A DNA stretch of 64,000 nt from Candidatus Thorarchaeota archaeon (GCA_048882485.1 JBHLRP010000003.1:32001-96000), one strand, 5' to 3'; counted from the first letter of the stretch, positions 17,129 through 59,954 are shown. A program made the numbers and translations. The notes: generated from the sequence alone by a model not told the origin.

Positions 17129-17695
17129 ATGCCAAGTGAAGAGTTCGATTCCGAGGATGAGTACGATGAGTTTGAGGATGAAGACGACGAGTCCTATGAT
17201 GATGAGGACGATGAGTACTATGAAGATGAAGAGGACTTTCCTGAAGAAGTAGAACAAGCCTTCATACAGCAGCGCGAGTCTCGTTTCACTGGCTTCTTGG
17301 AGGATCCTTGGCCAAAGACTGCATTCATTCTGATTCTTGTCGGCTTTGGCATCATTCTTCCGTGGCCTGAGGCTATCTGGTTCACATGGTTGTATCACAT
17401 AATTGCTCTATACGGGCTTAGCATATTGGGCCTTGTAGCAATTATCTACTCGCTGAAGGCATGGATAACCTCTAGCACTAGAATTCGCTTCATAGGTATG
17501 CTATTCATCATAATCTCTATTGTAAGTCTGGTCGTTGGGTTCATTGACACTATTGCATGGGCATTAACTGGCTATTCATTCATTCCTGTCCTCCAAACAC
17601 CCCTGGTTGTCCTATTCATCGTGGTTGAGGTCTTTCTGATCTACACATTGTGGATTATGCGTAGTCAGTTTATGGCACCCGAAGCTGAGGATTAG
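17129..17695 (+). CDS. 4-TM membrane protein with acidic low-complexity N-terminus
   Basis: ~40 aa D/E/Y/F tract followed by four hydrophobic helices. Confidence 0.85.
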   Translation: MPSEEFDSEDEYDEFEDEDDESYDDEDDEYYEDEEDFPEEVEQAFIQQRESRFTGFLEDPWPKTAFILILVGFGIILPWPEAIWFTWLYHIIALYGLSILGLVAIIYSLKAWITSSTRIRFIGMLFIIISIVSLVVGFIDTIAWALTGYSFIPVLQTPLVVLFIVVEVFLIYTLWIMRSQFMAPEAED

Positions 17696-17705
17696 GTGTT
17701 GTAGA

Positions 17706-18077
17706 GTGAGCCAAGACGAGCGCTCACTAGAATACCTAATCTTGCGAATACGTGAATTCGTCGAAGAACGCGGATGGGAGAAGTACCAGAAGCCAGGGTC
17801 ACTGGCTGTTTCAGCATCAATAGAAACAGGAGAATTGCTGGAACTCTTCCAATGGCTCAATGATGAAGAGATTGACCAATACCTCAAAGACGAACACTAT
17901 CGGTCTAGGCTTGCTTCGGAGATAGCAGATGTCATGATTTACATACTGAGGCTGGCAGATGTTACAGGAATCAATCCTTTTGATGCCATTCTCAATAAGA
18001 TGAAAGAAAATGAGAAGAAATATCCGTCAGATGAATGGCATTCACGAATCCCGAGTAAGACTAGGGAACCTCGGTAA
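17706..18077 (+). CDS. MazG-like (DCTPP1-type) nucleotide pyrophosphohydrolase
   Basis: F..ER.W, E.GELLELFQW, EIADV.IY, K...NE.KYP. Confidence 0.92.
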   Translation: MSQDERSLEYLILRIREFVEERGWEKYQKPGSLAVSASIETGELLELFQWLNDEEIDQYLKDEHYRSRLASEIADVMIYILRLADVTGINPFDAILNKMKENEKKYPSDEWHSRIPSKTREPR

Positions 18078-18876
18078 GTCGTTTGTAGAGGTCTGGGCGT
18101 CTATCAGCGATTGCGTCATTACGTGCAGTCATTGTCTTATCGTCTGCTTCGATGAGGGCCAAATCTGCCCATTGGAGATCACTGACTCCTTCACCTATAC
18201 GAAGAAGGACTTCCCCTCCTGGCGTTGTTATCTGCGAGCCGCCAACGAAATGCACATCTCGTTCCTCGCCGGTCCTACCTGAAGTGGCTGTAAATACGCG
18301 GTTCTCAATTGACCTTGTGATCATCGCATCTGGACAGAACGGGAGGACAAGATTTGCTGGATGCAGGATAATCTGAGCCCTTTTGATTGCTAATATCCTG
18401 GAAATCTCAGGGAATGCCCAATCAAAACATATCATTATTCCAAAACGATATCCATTATGTTCAATTACTGGGGGCTCTTCATTTCCAGGAAGAAACCATT
18501 CCTTCTCTTTATCGAATAGCTGAATCTTGCGATAAGTAGTGAGATGCTTTCCGGCGCCAAAGATTGCCGCAGAGTTGTAGAGATCGCCCTCCGCTCTCTC
18601 GCATAATCCCGCGGTGACTAGCCCTCCTCTGTTCGACCATTTCAATAGATGTCTTGAGAAATCTCCCTCTGGAATTGTTTCTGAGAGAGCGTATGCTTCT
18701 TCGCGACTGTCGAAGACATAGCCGGAGTTTGCTAGTTCGGGAAGGACAAGAACATCGACCTGGTTGTCGGATGAAGAATCAAGAATATCATTCATCTTGG
18801 TCAGATTACCTTCTAAGTCGCCAATGATAGGCTCTATCTGACCAACAGCTACTCTGACTGACACAGTGGCACCCAA
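18061..18876 (-). CDS. Nitrilase/carbon-nitrogen hydrolase
   Basis: E-K-C triad: VLPEL, YRKIQL, ICFDW. Confidence 0.93.
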   Translation of the reverse strand: MGATVSVRVAVGQIEPIIGDLEGNLTKMNDILDSSSDNQVDVLVLPELANSGYVFDSREEAYALSETIPEGDFSRHLLKWSNRGGLVTAGLCERAEGDLYNSAAIFGAGKHLTTYRKIQLFDKEKEWFLPGNEEPPVIEHNGYRFGIMICFDWAFPEISRILAIKRAQIILHPANLVLPFCPDAMITRSIENRVFTATSGRTGEERDVHFVGGSQITTPGGEVLLRIGEGVSDLQWADLALIEADDKTMTARNDAIADRRPDLYKRLTEVP

Positions 18877-18973
18877 TTTCTCATGTCAAGTCATAGGCTA
18901 TCACTGCTTCGGTAGGGTCCGCCAGCAAGCCTTTTTTCATCTGAGCTACTATACTAATGCAAAGGTGAACTCA

Positions 18974-19054
18974 GTGTTCTTCGATGATGATGATTGGTAC
19001 GACGCCGAAGAGGACTGGGAAGACGATGAATGGGAAGACGATGACGATTGGTAG
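18974..19054 (+). CDS. 26-aa Trp/acidic micropeptide MFFDDDDWYDAEEDWEDDEWEDDDDW
   Basis: GTG start 5 nt after AGGTGA (18963-18968); sits in an otherwise empty gap; downstream hairpin pairs fully only on the + strand. Confidence 0.65.
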   Translation: MFFDDDDWYDAEEDWEDDEWEDDDDW

Positions 19055-19091
19055 TATCCATATTATCTGCCTTTCATCGTCCGTAGTAGAC

Positions 19092-19124
19092 TAGGGGTGC
19101 GGGTCTGAAAGGACTCGCTCCCTA
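19092..19124 (+). terminator. 14-bp RNA hairpin with GAAA tetraloop
   Basis: TAGGGG-T-GCGGGTCT-GAAA-GGACTCGC-TCCCTA; three G-U pairs that exist only in the + transcript. Confidence 0.6.
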
Positions 19125-19133
19125 TGCTTGCTT

Positions 19134-19994
19134 TTAGAAGAGGCCGCCTTTCATTTTGGTCTGGCAATCACAACCTGCATCCGTTGGGATATTGTCAATC
19201 ATCTCAAAGGTGAGCTTCCTCACGCGATCAACGTTGTCAGCCATAGTTTTCAATACAGCCTCGTGTGTGACAACTTCTTCCCCATGGACATCATAGTCAG
19301 TCGGCATACTCACATTAACAAAACATATCCCTGCTTCCATCGCGAGGGCTGCTTCTGGGTATGCGGTCATTCCAATGACCTCCCAGCCCTGATTGTGATA
19401 GAACATTGACTCGGCTCTAGTGGAGAATCTAGGTCCATTGATGCATACATATGTTCCCTTGTCATGAATCTTATACTTCAGCTTACCAGCGGTTTCTACG
19501 GCAACCTTGCGAAGTTCGGGACAGAAGGGTTCCGCAAATGGAAGGTGTGCGATAGGCCCTCCCTCGAAGAACGTGTCTTTCCTTCTTCCGAAGGTTCTAT
19601 CAAAGATTGAGTCGGCAATCACGAATTCGCCAAGTTTGACCTTATCTGGTTGCAGGCTCCCACAAGCGGCAGGACTGATGATTCTTGTGACGCCAAGAGA
19701 TTTGAGGCCCCAAATATTGGCTCGATAGTTGATGGCATGAGGCGGAATTGTGTGACCTCTACCGTGTCGTGCTAGAAACACAAAGGAACGGCCCTTTGCC
19801 TTTCCAACGATATAGTTGTCCGAGGCCTCACCATATGGAGTGAACACCTTGATCTCCATAGGGTTCTCTATGACTGTAGGATCATAATTGCCACTACCCC
19901 CAAACATGCCAATCTCAATCGGGAGCAAGTTCTCTATTTCTTCCTTCTGAGTACGGTCTATTGGGACAAATTCAAGCTTCGCTTCGAATGCCAT
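19134..19994 (-). CDS. mtnP: S-methyl-5'-thioadenosine phosphorylase
   Basis: GGSG, TPYG, LARHGRGH..PPH.INYRANI, GPRFSTRAES, IGMT..PE, TDYD. Confidence 0.9.
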   Translation of the reverse strand: MAFEAKLEFVPIDRTQKEEIENLLPIEIGMFGGSGNYDPTVIENPMEIKVFTPYGEASDNYIVGKAKGRSFVFLARHGRGHTIPPHAINYRANIWGLKSLGVTRIISPAACGSLQPDKVKLGEFVIADSIFDRTFGRRKDTFFEGGPIAHLPFAEPFCPELRKVAVETAGKLKYKIHDKGTYVCINGPRFSTRAESMFYHNQGWEVIGMTAYPEAALAMEAGICFVNVSMPTDYDVHGEEVVTHEAVLKTMADNVDRVRKLTFEMIDNIPTDAGCDCQTKMKGGLF

Positions 19995-55848: not shown

Positions 55849-57375
55849 TTGATGTATGAGCGGCTATGCAATCTATGCGCTCGAATTCCCCCTTTTTCCT
55901 CATTTGGTGCGCGGAGAGAGGATCGAGAGCTTGCAAAAGCAGTCAAATTCCTTGAGACAAAGATACATGTTAGTACATCGGGTGTCTTTGCAGCTTCATA
56001 TTTCACTTCAACCTCAGTATTTGTCATTTCAATCATAGTCTTCGTTCTGCTGGACGCAAGCATCCTGATATCTTTGCCAATATCCGCTATTGCATCTGCG
56101 ATAACCTACTTCGCCGTAGTGTCGTATCCTGTTTCAACCATGAATAGCTATAAGCTCAGTATATCCGAAGAAGCGGACCTCGTTTTCGAGCAATTCATCC
56201 TTGTCTTTCAAACCGGTGGCACAATTTTTGATGCAATAGAAATGGTGGCTTCATCCGATCACCCCTTCTTGTCAAAGGTCTTCCTGGAGATTATGGAGCA
56301 GATTCAAGGTGGCACGCCTCCTGAAACATGTCTGATGGAATTTGCCAAGAATCAGCCTTCTGATGATTTGAGGAGATATGTAATGGGCATTCTCTCGGCT
56401 CTAGAACAAAAGACTGAACTCTTAGACCTCCTTTCAGGGGAGTCTTTTGAAGCCGACATGACGCTGCGCCAGAAGAATCTGGAGCTTGAGAGCCGTCTTT
56501 TGGTCGTAGCAGCACTTGCCACATATATACCGATAATGCTTACTCTGGCAGTTTCTCTTGCGGGACATGCCACCAATCTCATGGTTCTTCTGCTGGCTCC
56601 AATCCTAATTGGACTCAACTCACTATTGAAAACAAGATTCTCAAGTCAATTCTCTGCATATTTCGATAGACCCAATCGTGAGAACGTGCTATTCCTTCAT
56701 CAAAGTCAAATTGTCGCAGAATATGATGAATTCCTGAACTTCCTTATGCTGCTATCAGAACGTCTGAGATCCGGCGACACCCTGGAGGTGGCTATCCAAT
56801 CTATCCGCGACGACGTCGCAGTTGAGATACAGAAGCTTATTGATCCAGTTATTAATTCCATTTCATGGGGAGGGGGAAGTATTGAGGAGGCCATGGCAGA
56901 TGCTGCTAAGATGGCACTGGGTCAGCGAGTTGCAAATATGATCAGGATGATAACGGTGATGTGCGCGACATCAGCAACTGATGCTGGTAATCGTCTTTCA
57001 AGGATAGCGGCTCGTTTAGTGAAGCGATCAGCTGTGGCAAAGGAACGCGAGTCAATTATCGCGGCTCAGCGTTTCAAGGTATATCTATTGAGCATCACCA
57101 GCTCACTAGTCTTGGGTCTGCTCTCCGCTCTTTCGCCCTACCTATTCATTGGATCTTTGTTGACTGAAGGACCTACTTGGAGCGCAGGTGACTTATCGCT
57201 ACTGAACATCCTGCCTTTGTTTGCCACCTTACTTGTCACGACAATATCCACAGGTTACCAAAACACAAGTATGGTTGGCGGTAGACGTCCAATCCTAATG
57301 GGCGCCGTTTGCGGACTTCTATTCTGGGCAGCTTTCATGCTTTCATCTGCCATTCTGGGGATAGAAATTGTGTGA
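55849..57375 (+). CDS. T2SS-F/TadB-TadC/FlaJ-like membrane platform protein with two domains
   Basis: Two repeats of G..L..A.....(13-20 aa)..I..G.....A, each followed by TM helices. Confidence 0.8.
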   Translation: MMYERLCNLCARIPPFSSFGARREDRELAKAVKFLETKIHVSTSGVFAASYFTSTSVFVISIIVFVLLDASILISLPISAIASAITYFAVVSYPVSTMNSYKLSISEEADLVFEQFILVFQTGGTIFDAIEMVASSDHPFLSKVFLEIMEQIQGGTPPETCLMEFAKNQPSDDLRRYVMGILSALEQKTELLDLLSGESFEADMTLRQKNLELESRLLVVAALATYIPIMLTLAVSLAGHATNLMVLLLAPILIGLNSLLKTRFSSQFSAYFDRPNRENVLFLHQSQIVAEYDEFLNFLMLLSERLRSGDTLEVAIQSIRDDVAVEIQKLIDPVINSISWGGGSIEEAMADAAKMALGQRVANMIRMITVMCATSATDAGNRLSRIAARLVKRSAVAKERESIIAAQRFKVYLLSITSSLVLGLLSALSPYLFIGSLLTEGPTWSAGDLSLLNILPLFATLLVTTISTGYQNTSMVGGRRPILMGAVCGLLFWAAFMLSSAILGIEIV

Positions 57376-57432
57376 CATAGGTTTTTTAGAAGCGATGGTG
57401 AAGGTCGTTTCAGTAAGCAAGAGGTGTAAAGC

Positions 57433-58086
57433 ATGCTTCAATTCGAGATTTTCGACCTCACCCTAGCTGAAATTGTTGCCTACTTCCAGAATGATGTTGT
57501 TATTGCTTGGGTGCTGATCGGCTCTGGTGCTCTCGCTGCAGCATGGCTGCTTGAGAATATTACAGATCCAATTCCACTTCTCGGAACTATATTCGACGGG
57601 TTGGTGGCAATCAGTACCTATCTTGGCTTCTTTGTAGGCATTCTGGATATGTGTGTAGGCTATGTTGTATGGGCAGCGAATCCAGACGCAGTGATTGTGG
57701 CCGGGCTTCTCGTCCTCATTGGTTTCGCATTGAGTATGAGACTGCTCTCAAAGTTTCCTATCGCGCTTCTTCTGTCCTTAGGCCTAGCTTTGTTCGGCAC
57801 ATTTACGCTCTATGGAATTCTCACTCCTTATGCAGATGCCCCCGTCATAGGTGAATACGTCACACAGATTATATCTTTGAAATGGATGGCAGTTATTGCT
57901 TTCATTATCTTCGCTGTGGTATACCTTCTAAGCGGCCTTCTGATCAAGTTGATTCAACTAATCGGAAAGGTGTTTGCAGCAACTCCGGTCATTGTATTGA
58001 TTGGACTTGCAGCCCTTGGAGTGGGACTTATCATCTTCTTTGCCCCAGAGATGGTTGGACTAGGTGTTGCCTGGCCATCGCCATAA
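57433..58086 (+). CDS. Multi-pass membrane protein
   Basis: About seven TM helices; GAGGTG before ATG. Confidence 0.82.
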   Translation: MLQFEIFDLTLAEIVAYFQNDVVIAWVLIGSGALAAAWLLENITDPIPLLGTIFDGLVAISTYLGFFVGILDMCVGYVVWAANPDAVIVAGLLVLIGFALSMRLLSKFPIALLLSLGLALFGTFTLYGILTPYADAPVIGEYVTQIISLKWMAVIAFIIFAVVYLLSGLLIKLIQLIGKVFAATPVIVLIGLAALGVGLIIFFAPEMVGLGVAWPSP

Positions 58087-58136
58087 TGCTTGAGGGGACC
58101 TGTTCCCCTCCTTGCATCTTTTTCTATCAAGTCAAT

Positions 58137-58397
58137 TCACATGGTTCGAGGGCGTCTTATCTCTCTGATGTACAGGAACTTGATAGAGAGATCCGAATAG
58201 AACTTGGCGGCATTGTCGATGCTCTTCTTCGCCTCAGTGATTCCAGAATACCAGTCTGAAACATAGAATCCCTTCTCACCAAGGTCACCAGATGCTAGTC
58301 GCGTGAATCCATCGGGCAATTCAAATCCCACAGGTACAAACATTGCTACCCTGAATTCACTGTTATTGGTTTCAAGCCAAAGTTCACAATACGACAT
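58137..58397 (-). CDS. Hypothetical protein
   Basis: 86-aa ORF filling the gap. Confidence 0.65.
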   Translation of the reverse strand: MSYCELWLETNNSEFRVAMFVPVGFELPDGFTRLASGDLGEKGFYVSDWYSGITEAKKSIDNAAKFYSDLSIKFLYIREIRRPRTM

Positions 58398-58588
58398 TCA
58401 TTCACAACTCTGCTCAATTTTCCCTGCTTAGAAGATTAAGGTTTGCCTGTGTAGATATGCCACAATAGCGCGTCCCAAAGAGTTCAAATAGAAGAAGTCA
58501 TGTGAAACTAACAAGACTCAGTAGAATCAAATACACTCTATGATAGATGAATGTGTCACAGGGCAGAAGACACGGAGGATAGGTCAAG

Positions 58589-59233
58589 TTGGCGCTCAGG
58601 TTCGAACAATCAACACTCATGAAAGAGAAAGCTGCAATCGAGAAAAAGGATGAATCTAGCCGCTCGAAGCAAGAAAAGGAGAGGTTGCAGGAAATCAATG
58701 ATTTGCTCAAGAAGAAAATCATCAGTGTGACTATGAGTCAGGCGCTGGTGAATCGCATTGATGAGCTTGTTCATGAAACTGTTGGTAGGTCTCGAGCTCA
58801 ACTAATCGAGGATGCAGTACGATGGTTCTTGGACTATTCCGTGCATAGATGGACTGACCTCGGTCTATATGTAACTGGTTCTAGAGTTGTATTGGAATCG
58901 GAAACCATGAATTCATTCTTCTTCTCAAAGCTAACTCCATCGGATCAGTACGAGCTTGGTATAACATCAGGTAGTCAATCAGCAATCGGGGATGTTATCA
59001 CATTATATCATGGAACCGATCCATCAGATAAGGATAGTCGAGGCCTTATTCTTACACTGCTTCAGAACTTTGGGTGGGGCTTTCTGAAAATGCAAAGCGA
59101 TGACCTTCTTGTCATAACAAGCCCCTTCTATCCAGCTCCATTCATACAAGGCTATCTTGAAGCGCTGCTAAAGGTCAAGCTAGAACTGGTTGACACTGCA
59201 GGGAAAGATACCGTCGCCCTTCGATTCAAATAG
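58589..59233 (+). CDS. Ribbon-helix-helix regulator with V4R-like C-terminal domain
   Basis: IISVTMSQALVNRIDELV....SRAQLIEDAV; later G.RV, YELG...G, L...GWG, F..GYL. Confidence 0.8.
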   Translation: MALRFEQSTLMKEKAAIEKKDESSRSKQEKERLQEINDLLKKKIISVTMSQALVNRIDELVHETVGRSRAQLIEDAVRWFLDYSVHRWTDLGLYVTGSRVVLESETMNSFFFSKLTPSDQYELGITSGSQSAIGDVITLYHGTDPSDKDSRGLILTLLQNFGWGFLKMQSDDLLVITSPFYPAPFIQGYLEALLKVKLELVDTAGKDTVALRFK

Positions 59234-59256
59234 CTCGAGTCTTGCAACTCAGCAGT

Positions 59257-59682
59257 CTACCATTCCTCACCTAGTTCAAGTATTTCGAACTCTGCATCAT
59301 ACAGTCCTGGAATGCTTTCTATGGTGCTTCTAATGGTTGGCTCCTTCTGCCTGATTTCATCTGCTGCAAAATATACCTCATAGACACATCGATTCTCCTC
59401 GAAGCAGAATCCTGTAGTGAACAGCACCTTGAGGTCATGAGCCTTAAAAAGCTGAGTCATAGTTTGCATGAGGGCAGGATTGACCTTCTCGACCTCGAGT
59501 CTGACACGTGCTCCACCCTCCTTCATCATCGGAATGAGTCTTATCTCTCCCGACCTCTCAAAATAGATTACCATTGCAGCTTTCATGTCACCAAGTTCTG
59601 GATTATTGAAGAAGTCCTCTGGAAGGGTAATCGCCCGCTTCTTCTTGACATCTGCAATCATACCTTTAGTTAGCCCGGCCAC
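59257..59682 (-). CDS. AbrB-like + ACT-like domain protein
   Basis: VKKKRAITLPEDF...EIRLIP N-terminal pattern; C-terminal beta-alpha-beta-beta-alpha-beta ending IESIPGL. Confidence 0.65.
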   Translation of the reverse strand: MAGLTKGMIADVKKKRAITLPEDFFNNPELGDMKAAMVIYFERSGEIRLIPMMKEGGARVRLEVEKVNPALMQTMTQLFKAHDLKVLFTTGFCFEENRCVYEVYFAADEIRQKEPTIRSTIESIPGLYDAEFEILELGEEW

Positions 59683-59831
59683 GCCAATCGCCTCTGCCTA
59701 TTAACTGGTTGAATGCACTGGTGTATTTGAGTCTTCGTCTTGCTTATACCCATGTCGAGAATGATTTCAGAAAGCCATAAATCAGGAGTTGAGGCTGCTG
59801 CATCACCAATCTACACGGAGAACTACGAATT

Positions 59832-59954
59832 ATGGGAAAGGAAGGAGAACTATACGTCTGTGACATCTGTCAGCAAGTTGTACGAGTAGTGAAATATGGG
59901 GCTGGAACCCTGGTTTGTTGCGGTCAACCAATGCGACTGTTTGAGGACGACTAG
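59832..59954 (+). CDS. Desulforedoxin (stand-alone FeCys4 domain)
   Basis: Not in ORF track. MGKEGELYVCDICQQVVRVVKYGAGTLVCCGQPMRLFEDD: Y.CxxC...G.GTLVCCG.PM signature; GGAG upstream. Confidence 0.92.
   Translation: MGKEGELYVCDICQQVVRVVKYGAGTLVCCGQPMRLFEDD

Follow-up and report, generated by a model that had tools for sequence, protein, structure and literature searches.

Genomic context and reading frame

The stretch of DNA analyzed here, referred to as the window, comprises 64,000 nt from a Candidatus Thorarchaeota archaeon (GCA_048882485.1 JBHLRP010000003.1:32001-96000), with positions counted from its first letter. Between two minus-strand genes it carries a short plus-strand reading frame rich in Asp, Glu and Trp codons, together with the following features:

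18061-18876, minus strand: CN_hydrolase gene, divergent neighbour of the micro-gene
18930-18939, plus strand: T-rich element CCTTTTTTCA, 35-44 nt upstream of the start codon
18963-18968, plus strand: Shine-Dalgarno sequence AGGTGA, 5 nt upstream of the start codon
18974-19054, plus strand: acidic-Trp coding sequence of 26 codons with GTG start, MFFDDDDWYDAEEDWEDDEWEDDDDW, and TAG stop at 19052-19054
19092-19124, plus strand: hairpin with arms 19092-19106 and 19111-19124 and a GAAA loop at 19107-19110
19132-19135, plus strand: TTTT run, 7 nt past the hairpin, overlapping the stop codon of the convergent MTA phosphorylase gene (19134-19136, minus strand)
19134-19994, minus strand: gene for an MTA-phosphorylase-type PNP_UDP_1 protein (mtnP/MTAP), convergent neighbour of the micro-gene

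The start codon is GTG at 18974 rather than ATG, separated from the AGGTGA by the spacer ACTCA, and the 25 codons that follow it, FFDDDDWYDAEEDWEDDEWEDDDDW, run directly into TAG. The encoded peptide begins with MFF, carries Trp at positions 8, 15, 20 and 26, the last of these being its C-terminal residue, and combines 17 Asp/Glu residues and 4 Trp with no basic residue, which gives a net charge of about -17 over 26 residues. A phosphoribosyltransferase (Pribosyltran) gene precedes the MTA phosphorylase gene, a MazG-like gene is also among the window neighbours, and a TPR protein gene lies 2 kb from the micro-gene; no tRNAs were found in the window. Near the micro-gene, the window also encodes a predicted membrane protein of 188 aa without a Pfam match (17129-17695, plus strand), whose first ~40 residues form an acidic-aromatic segment composed almost entirely of Asp/Glu with Tyr/Phe (MPSEEFDSEDEYDEFEDEDDESYDDEDDEYYEDEEDF...).

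The deposited annotation contains a different call for this frame, namely a 62-aa ORF that begins at a far-upstream GTG at 18866 (18866-19054, plus strand), forms a singleton cluster and is the sole database record of the locus. The 36 additional N-terminal codons of this call are unconserved and are interrupted by stops in relatives. The 62-aa form is ruled out by in-frame stops that lie directly before the equivalent of GTG 18974 in related genomes, and these same stops fix the start position of the shorter frame. Judged by this comparison, the deposited call has the wrong start.

Coding status

The MTA phosphorylase gene was used as an anchor to locate orthologous loci in 40 related genomes, and a similar frame was found just past its 3' end in several genera of the family. 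For the codon test, eight same-genus orthologues were aligned without indels, and their variable columns fall at codon positions 1, 2 and 3 in the proportion 3/4/14. In the coding frame, 10 of the 16 variable codons differ in a purely synonymous manner, whereas the two remaining sense frames give 0 of 15 and 4 of 16. Identity among these orthologues is 81-99% within the ORF versus 51-93% in the flanks, substitutions are chiefly synonymous or exchange Asp and Glu, and length differences across the family amount to whole codons. The ribosome-binding site, the start position and the stop are retained in both same-genus and other-genus loci.

An antisense poly-Ser frame also scored highly in this test, with 12 of 16 variable codons appearing 'synonymous', an artefact of the shared wobble position. 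This frame is interrupted by stops in 12 of the 44 family genes and has neither a start nor a ribosome-binding site, which identifies the sense frame as the coding one. Within the 3.96-Mb genome to which the window belongs, a six-frame reading revealed such an acidic-Trp tail in only two frames, and only 2 of 3446 long ORFs end in [DE]3-Trp. Two other small-gene classes were discarded, the Trp leader peptide or attenuator for want of a same-strand gene downstream and the RiPP precursor for want of a nearby maturase. It is very probable that 18974-19054 (plus strand) is a real translated gene, and its pattern of variation marks it as a genuine, conserved and essentially unannotated protein-coding micro-gene of Thorarchaeota (Asgard archaea).

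Signals flanking the frame

The signals around the frame recur in its relatives. A T-rich block comparable to that at 18930-18939 (CTTTTYT, CTTATTTCA or TCTTTACTCA) is present at an equal distance in both orthologous and paralogous loci, and the window element is a possible TATA-type promoter element of the micro-gene. In every family member examined, (G)AGGTGA or a close variant is positioned 4-8 nt upstream of an ATG, GTG or TTG. Downstream of the frame, the hairpin has a 14-bp stem with one bulged U and three G·U pairs (19097-19119, 19102-19115 and 19106-19111), and its predicted folding energy is -22.2 kcal/mol on the plus strand versus -14.7 kcal/mol on the minus strand, with folding z-scores over 86 nt of -2.3 and -0.4, respectively.

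Oligo-T serves as a termination signal in archaea, and a short T-run follows the hairpin. A scan for consensus terminators did not flag the window hairpin, which is followed by only four T, starting 7 nt past the stem. A strong hairpin with T-rich sequence occupies the same place in most orthologues and paralogues, where the T-runs are mostly longer than the four T of the window; one orthologue (L005) has no hairpin. The stems differ in sequence and could not be aligned in a MAFFT alignment of the 3' regions, so the hairpins of relatives were judged from single-sequence folds. The recurrence of hairpins and T-rich tails with unrelated stems fits a plus-strand 3' end or terminator and supports transcription of this strand. 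The window hairpin itself probably forms the 3' end of the micro-gene transcript or acts as its terminator.

A preliminary description of the locus had pointed to a 26-aa peptide in which 17 Asp/Glu and 4 Trp occur and basic residues are absent, preceded at 5 nt by AGGTGA, and to a GAAA-looped 14-bp stem with three G·U pairs that favours the plus strand; the sequence confirms the former and the folding energies agree with the latter. Its proposal of a stand-alone plus-strand micro-gene between minus-strand genes, equipped with its own ribosome-binding site and 3' hairpin, is likewise supported, and the conservation beside mtnP that it had suggested examining is indeed seen in relatives, where the frame is kept with mainly synonymous changes.

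Family definition and distribution

The low complexity of the peptide makes every sequence comparison with it weak. Searching six-frame translations with the 26-aa peptide yielded matches in 5 of 201 genomes and was too insensitive for a sequence of this kind, and codon-pattern searches were therefore used instead. Of 400 Asgard genomes, 18 contain the strict pattern Trp-[Asp/Glu]5-Trp-stop, and each of these belongs to the family of the window organism; the pattern was absent from the 315 Asgard genomes outside this family, and the reversed control gave no matches. The looser pattern [DE]5-Trp-stop occurs at ~100 sites distributed over 64 of the 86 family genomes; its reversed control matched twice.

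In total, 44 distinct peptides of 24-34 aa were collected, with an overall composition of 53% Asp, 14% Glu and 12% Trp. The acidic-Trp microprotein family is defined here operationally by these sequences, which share a Met-x-Phe N-terminus, runs of Asp/Glu, a Trp-Trp spacing of mostly 5-8, and an almost complete lack of basic residues, and of which 32 end in Trp and four in Phe. The window peptide agrees with this working definition in its ribosome-binding site, length, Met-x-Phe start, Trp spacing and terminal Trp. The 26-aa forms are absent from the protein collections queried, and no description of such a family was found in the literature; it therefore appears to be an undescribed microprotein family of a single Thorarchaeota family.

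Several longer acidic sequences were observed as well. On contig C12 of the same genome (2292-3245, plus strand), a protein of ~300 aa with a helix-turn-helix-like middle has a tail of ...EEQEEEEDW-stop, and a pattern search located orthologues of this tail in other genomes of the genus. In genome G052, a 44-aa ORF at L045:103-234 (plus strand), MSESEESNPKKTKSKPVVDETWDDVELPEEYWDDEFEEDEFEAW, lies 1.2 kb from that genome's acidic-Trp micro-gene and is preceded by a sequence resembling a ribosome-binding site; it looks DSS1-like and has no Pfam match at E ≤ 10.

A basic protein encoded beside the micro-gene

Many members of the family lie next to a gene for a basic protein of ~275 aa, here called X280. 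The copy in the genome studied (protein P0001) is located on contig C9 at about 320-1137 (L022:253-1137, plus strand) and has 272 aa, a pI of 10.6 and a net charge of +27; across loci, the pI ranges from 10.2 to 10.7 and the net charge from +18 to +29. X280 has no match among Pfam or NCBIfam HMMs, almost all of its 76 close homologues carry the label of hypothetical Thorarchaeota proteins, and a library of 1.84 billion proteins contains only 82 matching cluster representatives. Its gene is present in 60 of the 86 family genomes. Among 30 X280 loci fetched, 29 were assessable; in each of these, an acidic-Trp micro-gene lies upstream in divergent orientation, the two start codons being separated by about 240 nt. 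One genome (G020) encodes two X280 paralogues (L020 and L064), each with its own peptide gene, and genus g3 lacks X280 (0/7) and the [DE]5-Trp-stop tail (0/7) alike. In genus g4, where X280 was found in none of five genomes (0/5), a longer variant of 50 residues, MSGPQPDEEIDETELDEMDYEDWGEEEEWEEEDWGDDEWTATYRDEDDDDW, lies beside MTAP (L015:1291-1443, plus strand).

The AlphaFold model of X280 (pLDDT 84.5, pTM 0.82) contains two ferredoxin-like alpha/beta domains (residues 21-76 and 88-180) followed by a three-helix bundle (182-272). Foldseek returned weak matches to PaaX (8a39, E 4e-3), Rv0674 (3kfw) and Cas2 (4es1). With VIA-align, the tail resembles spectrin-like bundles, and the N-terminal half matches generic ferredoxin-like folds at Z ≤ 6.4, with Cas2 at Z 5.1-5.6. 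In the ESM Atlas, residues ~87-272 fall near ChrB_N/PaaX_M (Cas2-like) clusters with TM scores of 0.41-0.50 by query and 0.37-0.61 by target, and the whole protein near hypothetical Bathyarchaeota proteins with TM scores of 0.68-0.74; searching the PDB with a sequence profile produced nothing beyond coiled-coil noise. Compared with ChrB_N (PF20229) and PaaX_M (PF20803), X280 has an extra N-terminal ferredoxin-like domain and lacks the winged-helix domain. On the basis of these models, X280 may be called loosely ChrB_N/PaaX_M-like, a resemblance only, as the scores are too low for a claim of membership.

ChrB and PaaX are regulators, and X280 may, by analogy of the modelled fold, be a nucleic-acid-binding protein or control the micro-gene divergent to it. 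The intergenic regions between X280 and the peptide gene do contain conserved blocks; no conserved palindrome or operator was detected in these regions or upstream of the window gene. A complex prediction for X280 with the peptide of subfamily B (see below) scored 0.01, below the mark, and counts neither for nor against binding.

Two paralogous copies

The genome under study contains a second copy of the micro-gene, MYFDDEDIWADDDDDWDDDDWEDDDE, located on contig C9 beside X280 and assigned to subfamily B. The divergent neighbour of the window copy is the CN_hydrolase gene and not X280, so that the context typical of subfamily B is lacking and the window copy is filed as subfamily A. The two subfamilies occur in tandem in genome G375 of genus g7 (L029, contig C14, about 56850-59873), in which the genes follow one another as MazG-like, CN_hydrolase, A, X270, B and MTAP, with MazG-like, A and B reading rightward and CN_hydrolase, X270 and MTAP leftward. 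This tandem is probably the arrangement from which the window locus derives. Genera g6, g2 and g25 possess a single copy, in which a leftward X280, a rightward peptide gene and a leftward MTAP follow one another. In the genus of the window organism, A still lies between CN_hydrolase and MTAP, and X280 and B are found elsewhere. The placement between MTA phosphorylase and CN_hydrolase is kept in genera g1 and g7, and the copies of the subfamily in genus g5 have lost the mtnP neighbourhood.

Taken together, the locus layouts show the window gene to be a free-standing paralogue (A, of the ...WEEEDWEDDEWEDDDDW type) of the X280-linked B, and thus a spare duplicate of it.

A poly-Lys micro-gene downstream of copy B

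A further micro-gene, which encodes a poly-Lys peptide, follows B on the same strand, at a distance of about 75 nt, in all seven of the genus-g1/g5 loci read; three more g5 loci were picked up by an automatic scan with stricter criteria. A representative example is MAKKKPTTKKKKTEPKAAPAKKKK at L047:2710-2784 (plus strand), which has its own ribosome-binding site, and the gene occupies the same position in L048, L051, L054, L058, L060, L066, L071, L074 and L075. It comprises 24-33 codons, begins about 75-100 nt past B and is followed by a hairpin and a T-run. In the genome studied, contig C9 ends 5 nt past B, so the poly-Lys gene is unassembled there. No poly-Lys micro-gene follows copy A in the window. 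Beyond these loci, the whole trio is present at L078, a locus of another assembly with a distant X280-like gene, and two further distant X280-like loci have Lys-rich micro-ORFs only.

Possible mode of action

Since B always lies beside a very basic orphan protein, the product of the micro-gene probably clamps positively charged partners. The reading preferred here, which we rate as just short of probable given the composition and gene neighbourhood of the family, is that of a disordered polyanion with Trp anchors that would bind Lys/Arg-rich partners and thereby compete with nucleic acid or act as a chaperone. The peptide would be intrinsically disordered and would associate with Lys/Arg-rich surfaces, whether those of X280, of the poly-Lys microprotein or of other nucleic-acid-binding proteins. 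Charge would drive the binding, and the Trp side chains, those spaced along the peptide as well as the free one at its C-terminus, would serve as anchors; the peptide would either compete with nucleic acid as a phosphate-and-base mimic or hold its basic partners in a soluble or inactive state. The extra A copy might enlarge the peptide pool or allow it to be regulated separately, and because CN_hydrolase takes the place of X280 at the window copy, the partner of this copy may differ.

The divergent layout of X280 and the peptide gene could, however, be that of a regulator and its target gene rather than that of two binding partners, in line with the resemblance of the modelled X280 fold to regulators (ChrB_N/PaaX_M). 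A bolder version of charge-based binding, which we consider rather unlikely, would unite the acidic-Trp microprotein, the poly-Lys microprotein and the basic Cas2/ChrB_N-like protein in a charge-complementary three-part switch, in which the tiny disordered polyelectrolytes would titrate each other and the nucleic-acid-binding protein. Such a switch would parallel, in a prokaryote, the pairing of prothymosin-alpha with histone H1, and the free-standing copy of the window would act as a separately expressed antidote pool. No micro-gene polyelectrolyte module of this kind was described in the literature searched.

Alternative explanations

A different use of the same charge would be the buffering of small cations, with the polyanion binding polyamines or divalent metal ions and serving as a reservoir or sensor for polyamine and methionine-salvage metabolism. 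The net charge of about -17 in 26 residues, the position next to MTA phosphorylase and CN_hydrolase that is conserved in genera g1 and g7, and the general association of the family with polycationic partners are all compatible with this idea. Nevertheless, it leaves the regular Trp spacing and the terminal Trp unexplained, among the conserved neighbours the strongest is a basic protein rather than a polyamine enzyme, and a convergent neighbour is weak evidence for a shared function. We therefore regard a cation buffer as distinctly unlikely.

The frame might also act through its translation. In Escherichia coli, acidic nascent chains (Asp/Glu runs) destabilize ribosomes in a Mg2+-dependent manner, and translation of the Asp/Glu run could accordingly report Mg2+ or polyamine status and set the extent to which the plus-strand transcript continues antisense into mtnP. 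The flanking genes are linked to methionine salvage and polyamines (CN_hydrolase, MTA phosphorylase and phosphoribosyltransferase), and the T-run overlaps the mtnP stop codon, both of which favour such a sensor. The hairpin and T-run, however, follow the micro-gene directly, with no same-strand gene downstream, and the mtnP neighbourhood is lost in the genus g5 copies of the same subfamily. No acidic micro-ORF precedes ABCE1 in the genome studied either. Moreover, the Trp positions, Met-x-Phe and the terminal Trp are kept as amino acids, which would be needless for pure stalling, and the probability of this explanation is accordingly small.

The Asgard affiliation of the host invites a comparison with eukaryotic docking peptides, according to which the micro-gene would encode a Sem1/DSS1-like subunit or an acidic-Trp ligand of actin-related, TPR or coat-like proteins. 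The composition does resemble that of eukaryotic acidic-Trp motifs, and a TPR protein is encoded 2 kb away. However, searches with four family members and three longer variants gave no match to DSS1_SEM1 or any other Pfam family at E ≤ 10, the peptide has 26 aa compared with ~70-90 aa for DSS1/Sem1, the WH2 and connector elements are absent, the strict pattern is found in none of the 315 other Asgard genomes, and the gene conserved beside the micro-gene encodes a lineage-specific basic orphan. We consider this explanation very unlikely. The preliminary description had proposed an acidic mimic or chaperone of Sem1 type; the general idea fits the link to basic X280 and the poly-Lys micro-gene, and the Sem1 identity, with no HMM match, is unsupported. 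The eukaryote-style docking to Arp2/3, kinesin or delta-COP that it had also suggested is likewise unsupported for a peptide without WH2 or connector, confined by the strict pattern to one Thorarchaeota family and belonging to a family encoded beside an archaeal orphan.

Least credible of all is a C/D-box small RNA or other structured RNA with an incidental open frame, for although the hairpin favours the plus strand and an Rfam search of 1.1 kb around the gene (18500-19600) gave, as its only matches, weak ones over 18983-19049 to sR18 (13.7 bits, E 3.3) and sR30 (13.1 bits, E 1.9), these arise from GAUGA words in the Asp codons and lie far under the gathering thresholds of 45 and 38 bits, there is no conserved CUGA D box, the sequence varies by codon and by whole-codon indels, and the ribosome-binding site and start are conserved.

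Significance

Genes that are so short and of such low complexity escape annotation or are mis-called, and the micro-gene described here is nonetheless conserved across an archaeal family and tied to a basic orphan and a poly-Lys micro-gene. New here is the assignment, from gene order, of the window copy as paralogue A of the X280-linked B. If the proposed charge pairing is true, the system would offer a minimal and genetically tractable case of regulation by disordered polyelectrolyte microproteins in archaea, and since peptides of this size can be synthesized, the charge-pairing hypothesis is directly testable. The locus also calls for caution, in that acidic-Trp motifs of Asgard archaea should not be read as eukaryote-like docking signals without evidence.

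Comparison with known systems

Several known acidic proteins and motifs share individual features with the micro-gene product. The resemblance to the acidic (A) motif of WASP and the W-acidic motif of kinesin light chain ligands, in which Trp is flanked by Asp/Glu (DDW, EWED), is compositional only, and in contrast to the WASP VCA region, the window peptide has nothing but MFF before its first acidic run, without WH2 or connector. LysW/ArgW carriers are likewise small acidic proteins of archaea and bacteria with Trp near an acidic C-terminus, but the window peptide lacks their Cys zinc ribbon, ends in Trp instead of Glu and has no LysX-type ATP-grasp neighbour.

DSS1/Sem1 (PF05160) is a small, acidic and disordered eukaryotic protein of ~70-90 aa that wraps basic surfaces and can mimic DNA. 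The window peptide is similarly small, strongly acidic and, by prediction from its composition, disordered, and it is rich in Trp, a residue that is functionally important in DSS1/Sem1; it differs in its length of 26 aa, the lack of a C-terminal helix and of an HMM match, and its restriction to one Thorarchaeota family. The partners differ as well, being PCI-domain or BRCA2-type proteins in the case of DSS1/Sem1, whereas the conserved neighbour of the acidic-Trp family is a basic orphan. Prothymosin-alpha and histone H1 form a disordered polyanion-polycation pair, and the combination of an Asp/Glu chain with a Lys-rich chain has a parallel, at the level of the genes, in the tandem acidic and poly-Lys micro-genes; the eukaryotic proteins are, however, much longer and lack periodic Trp. 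The tip of SSB (DDDIPF) and the tails of phage T7 gp2.5 and gp4 consist of an acidic run with a terminal aromatic residue and can dock into basic pockets and mimic single-stranded DNA. The acidic-Trp peptides share the acidic run, the terminal aromatic residue (36 of the 44 end in Trp or Phe) and the free carboxylate, but the SSB and T7 elements are tails of folded proteins, whereas here the whole protein is the tail and contains several internal Trp. By analogy, DSS1/Sem1, prothymosin-alpha with histone H1, and the aromatic-ended acidic tails of SSB and T7 gp2.5 would thus be the closest known systems in their way of working.
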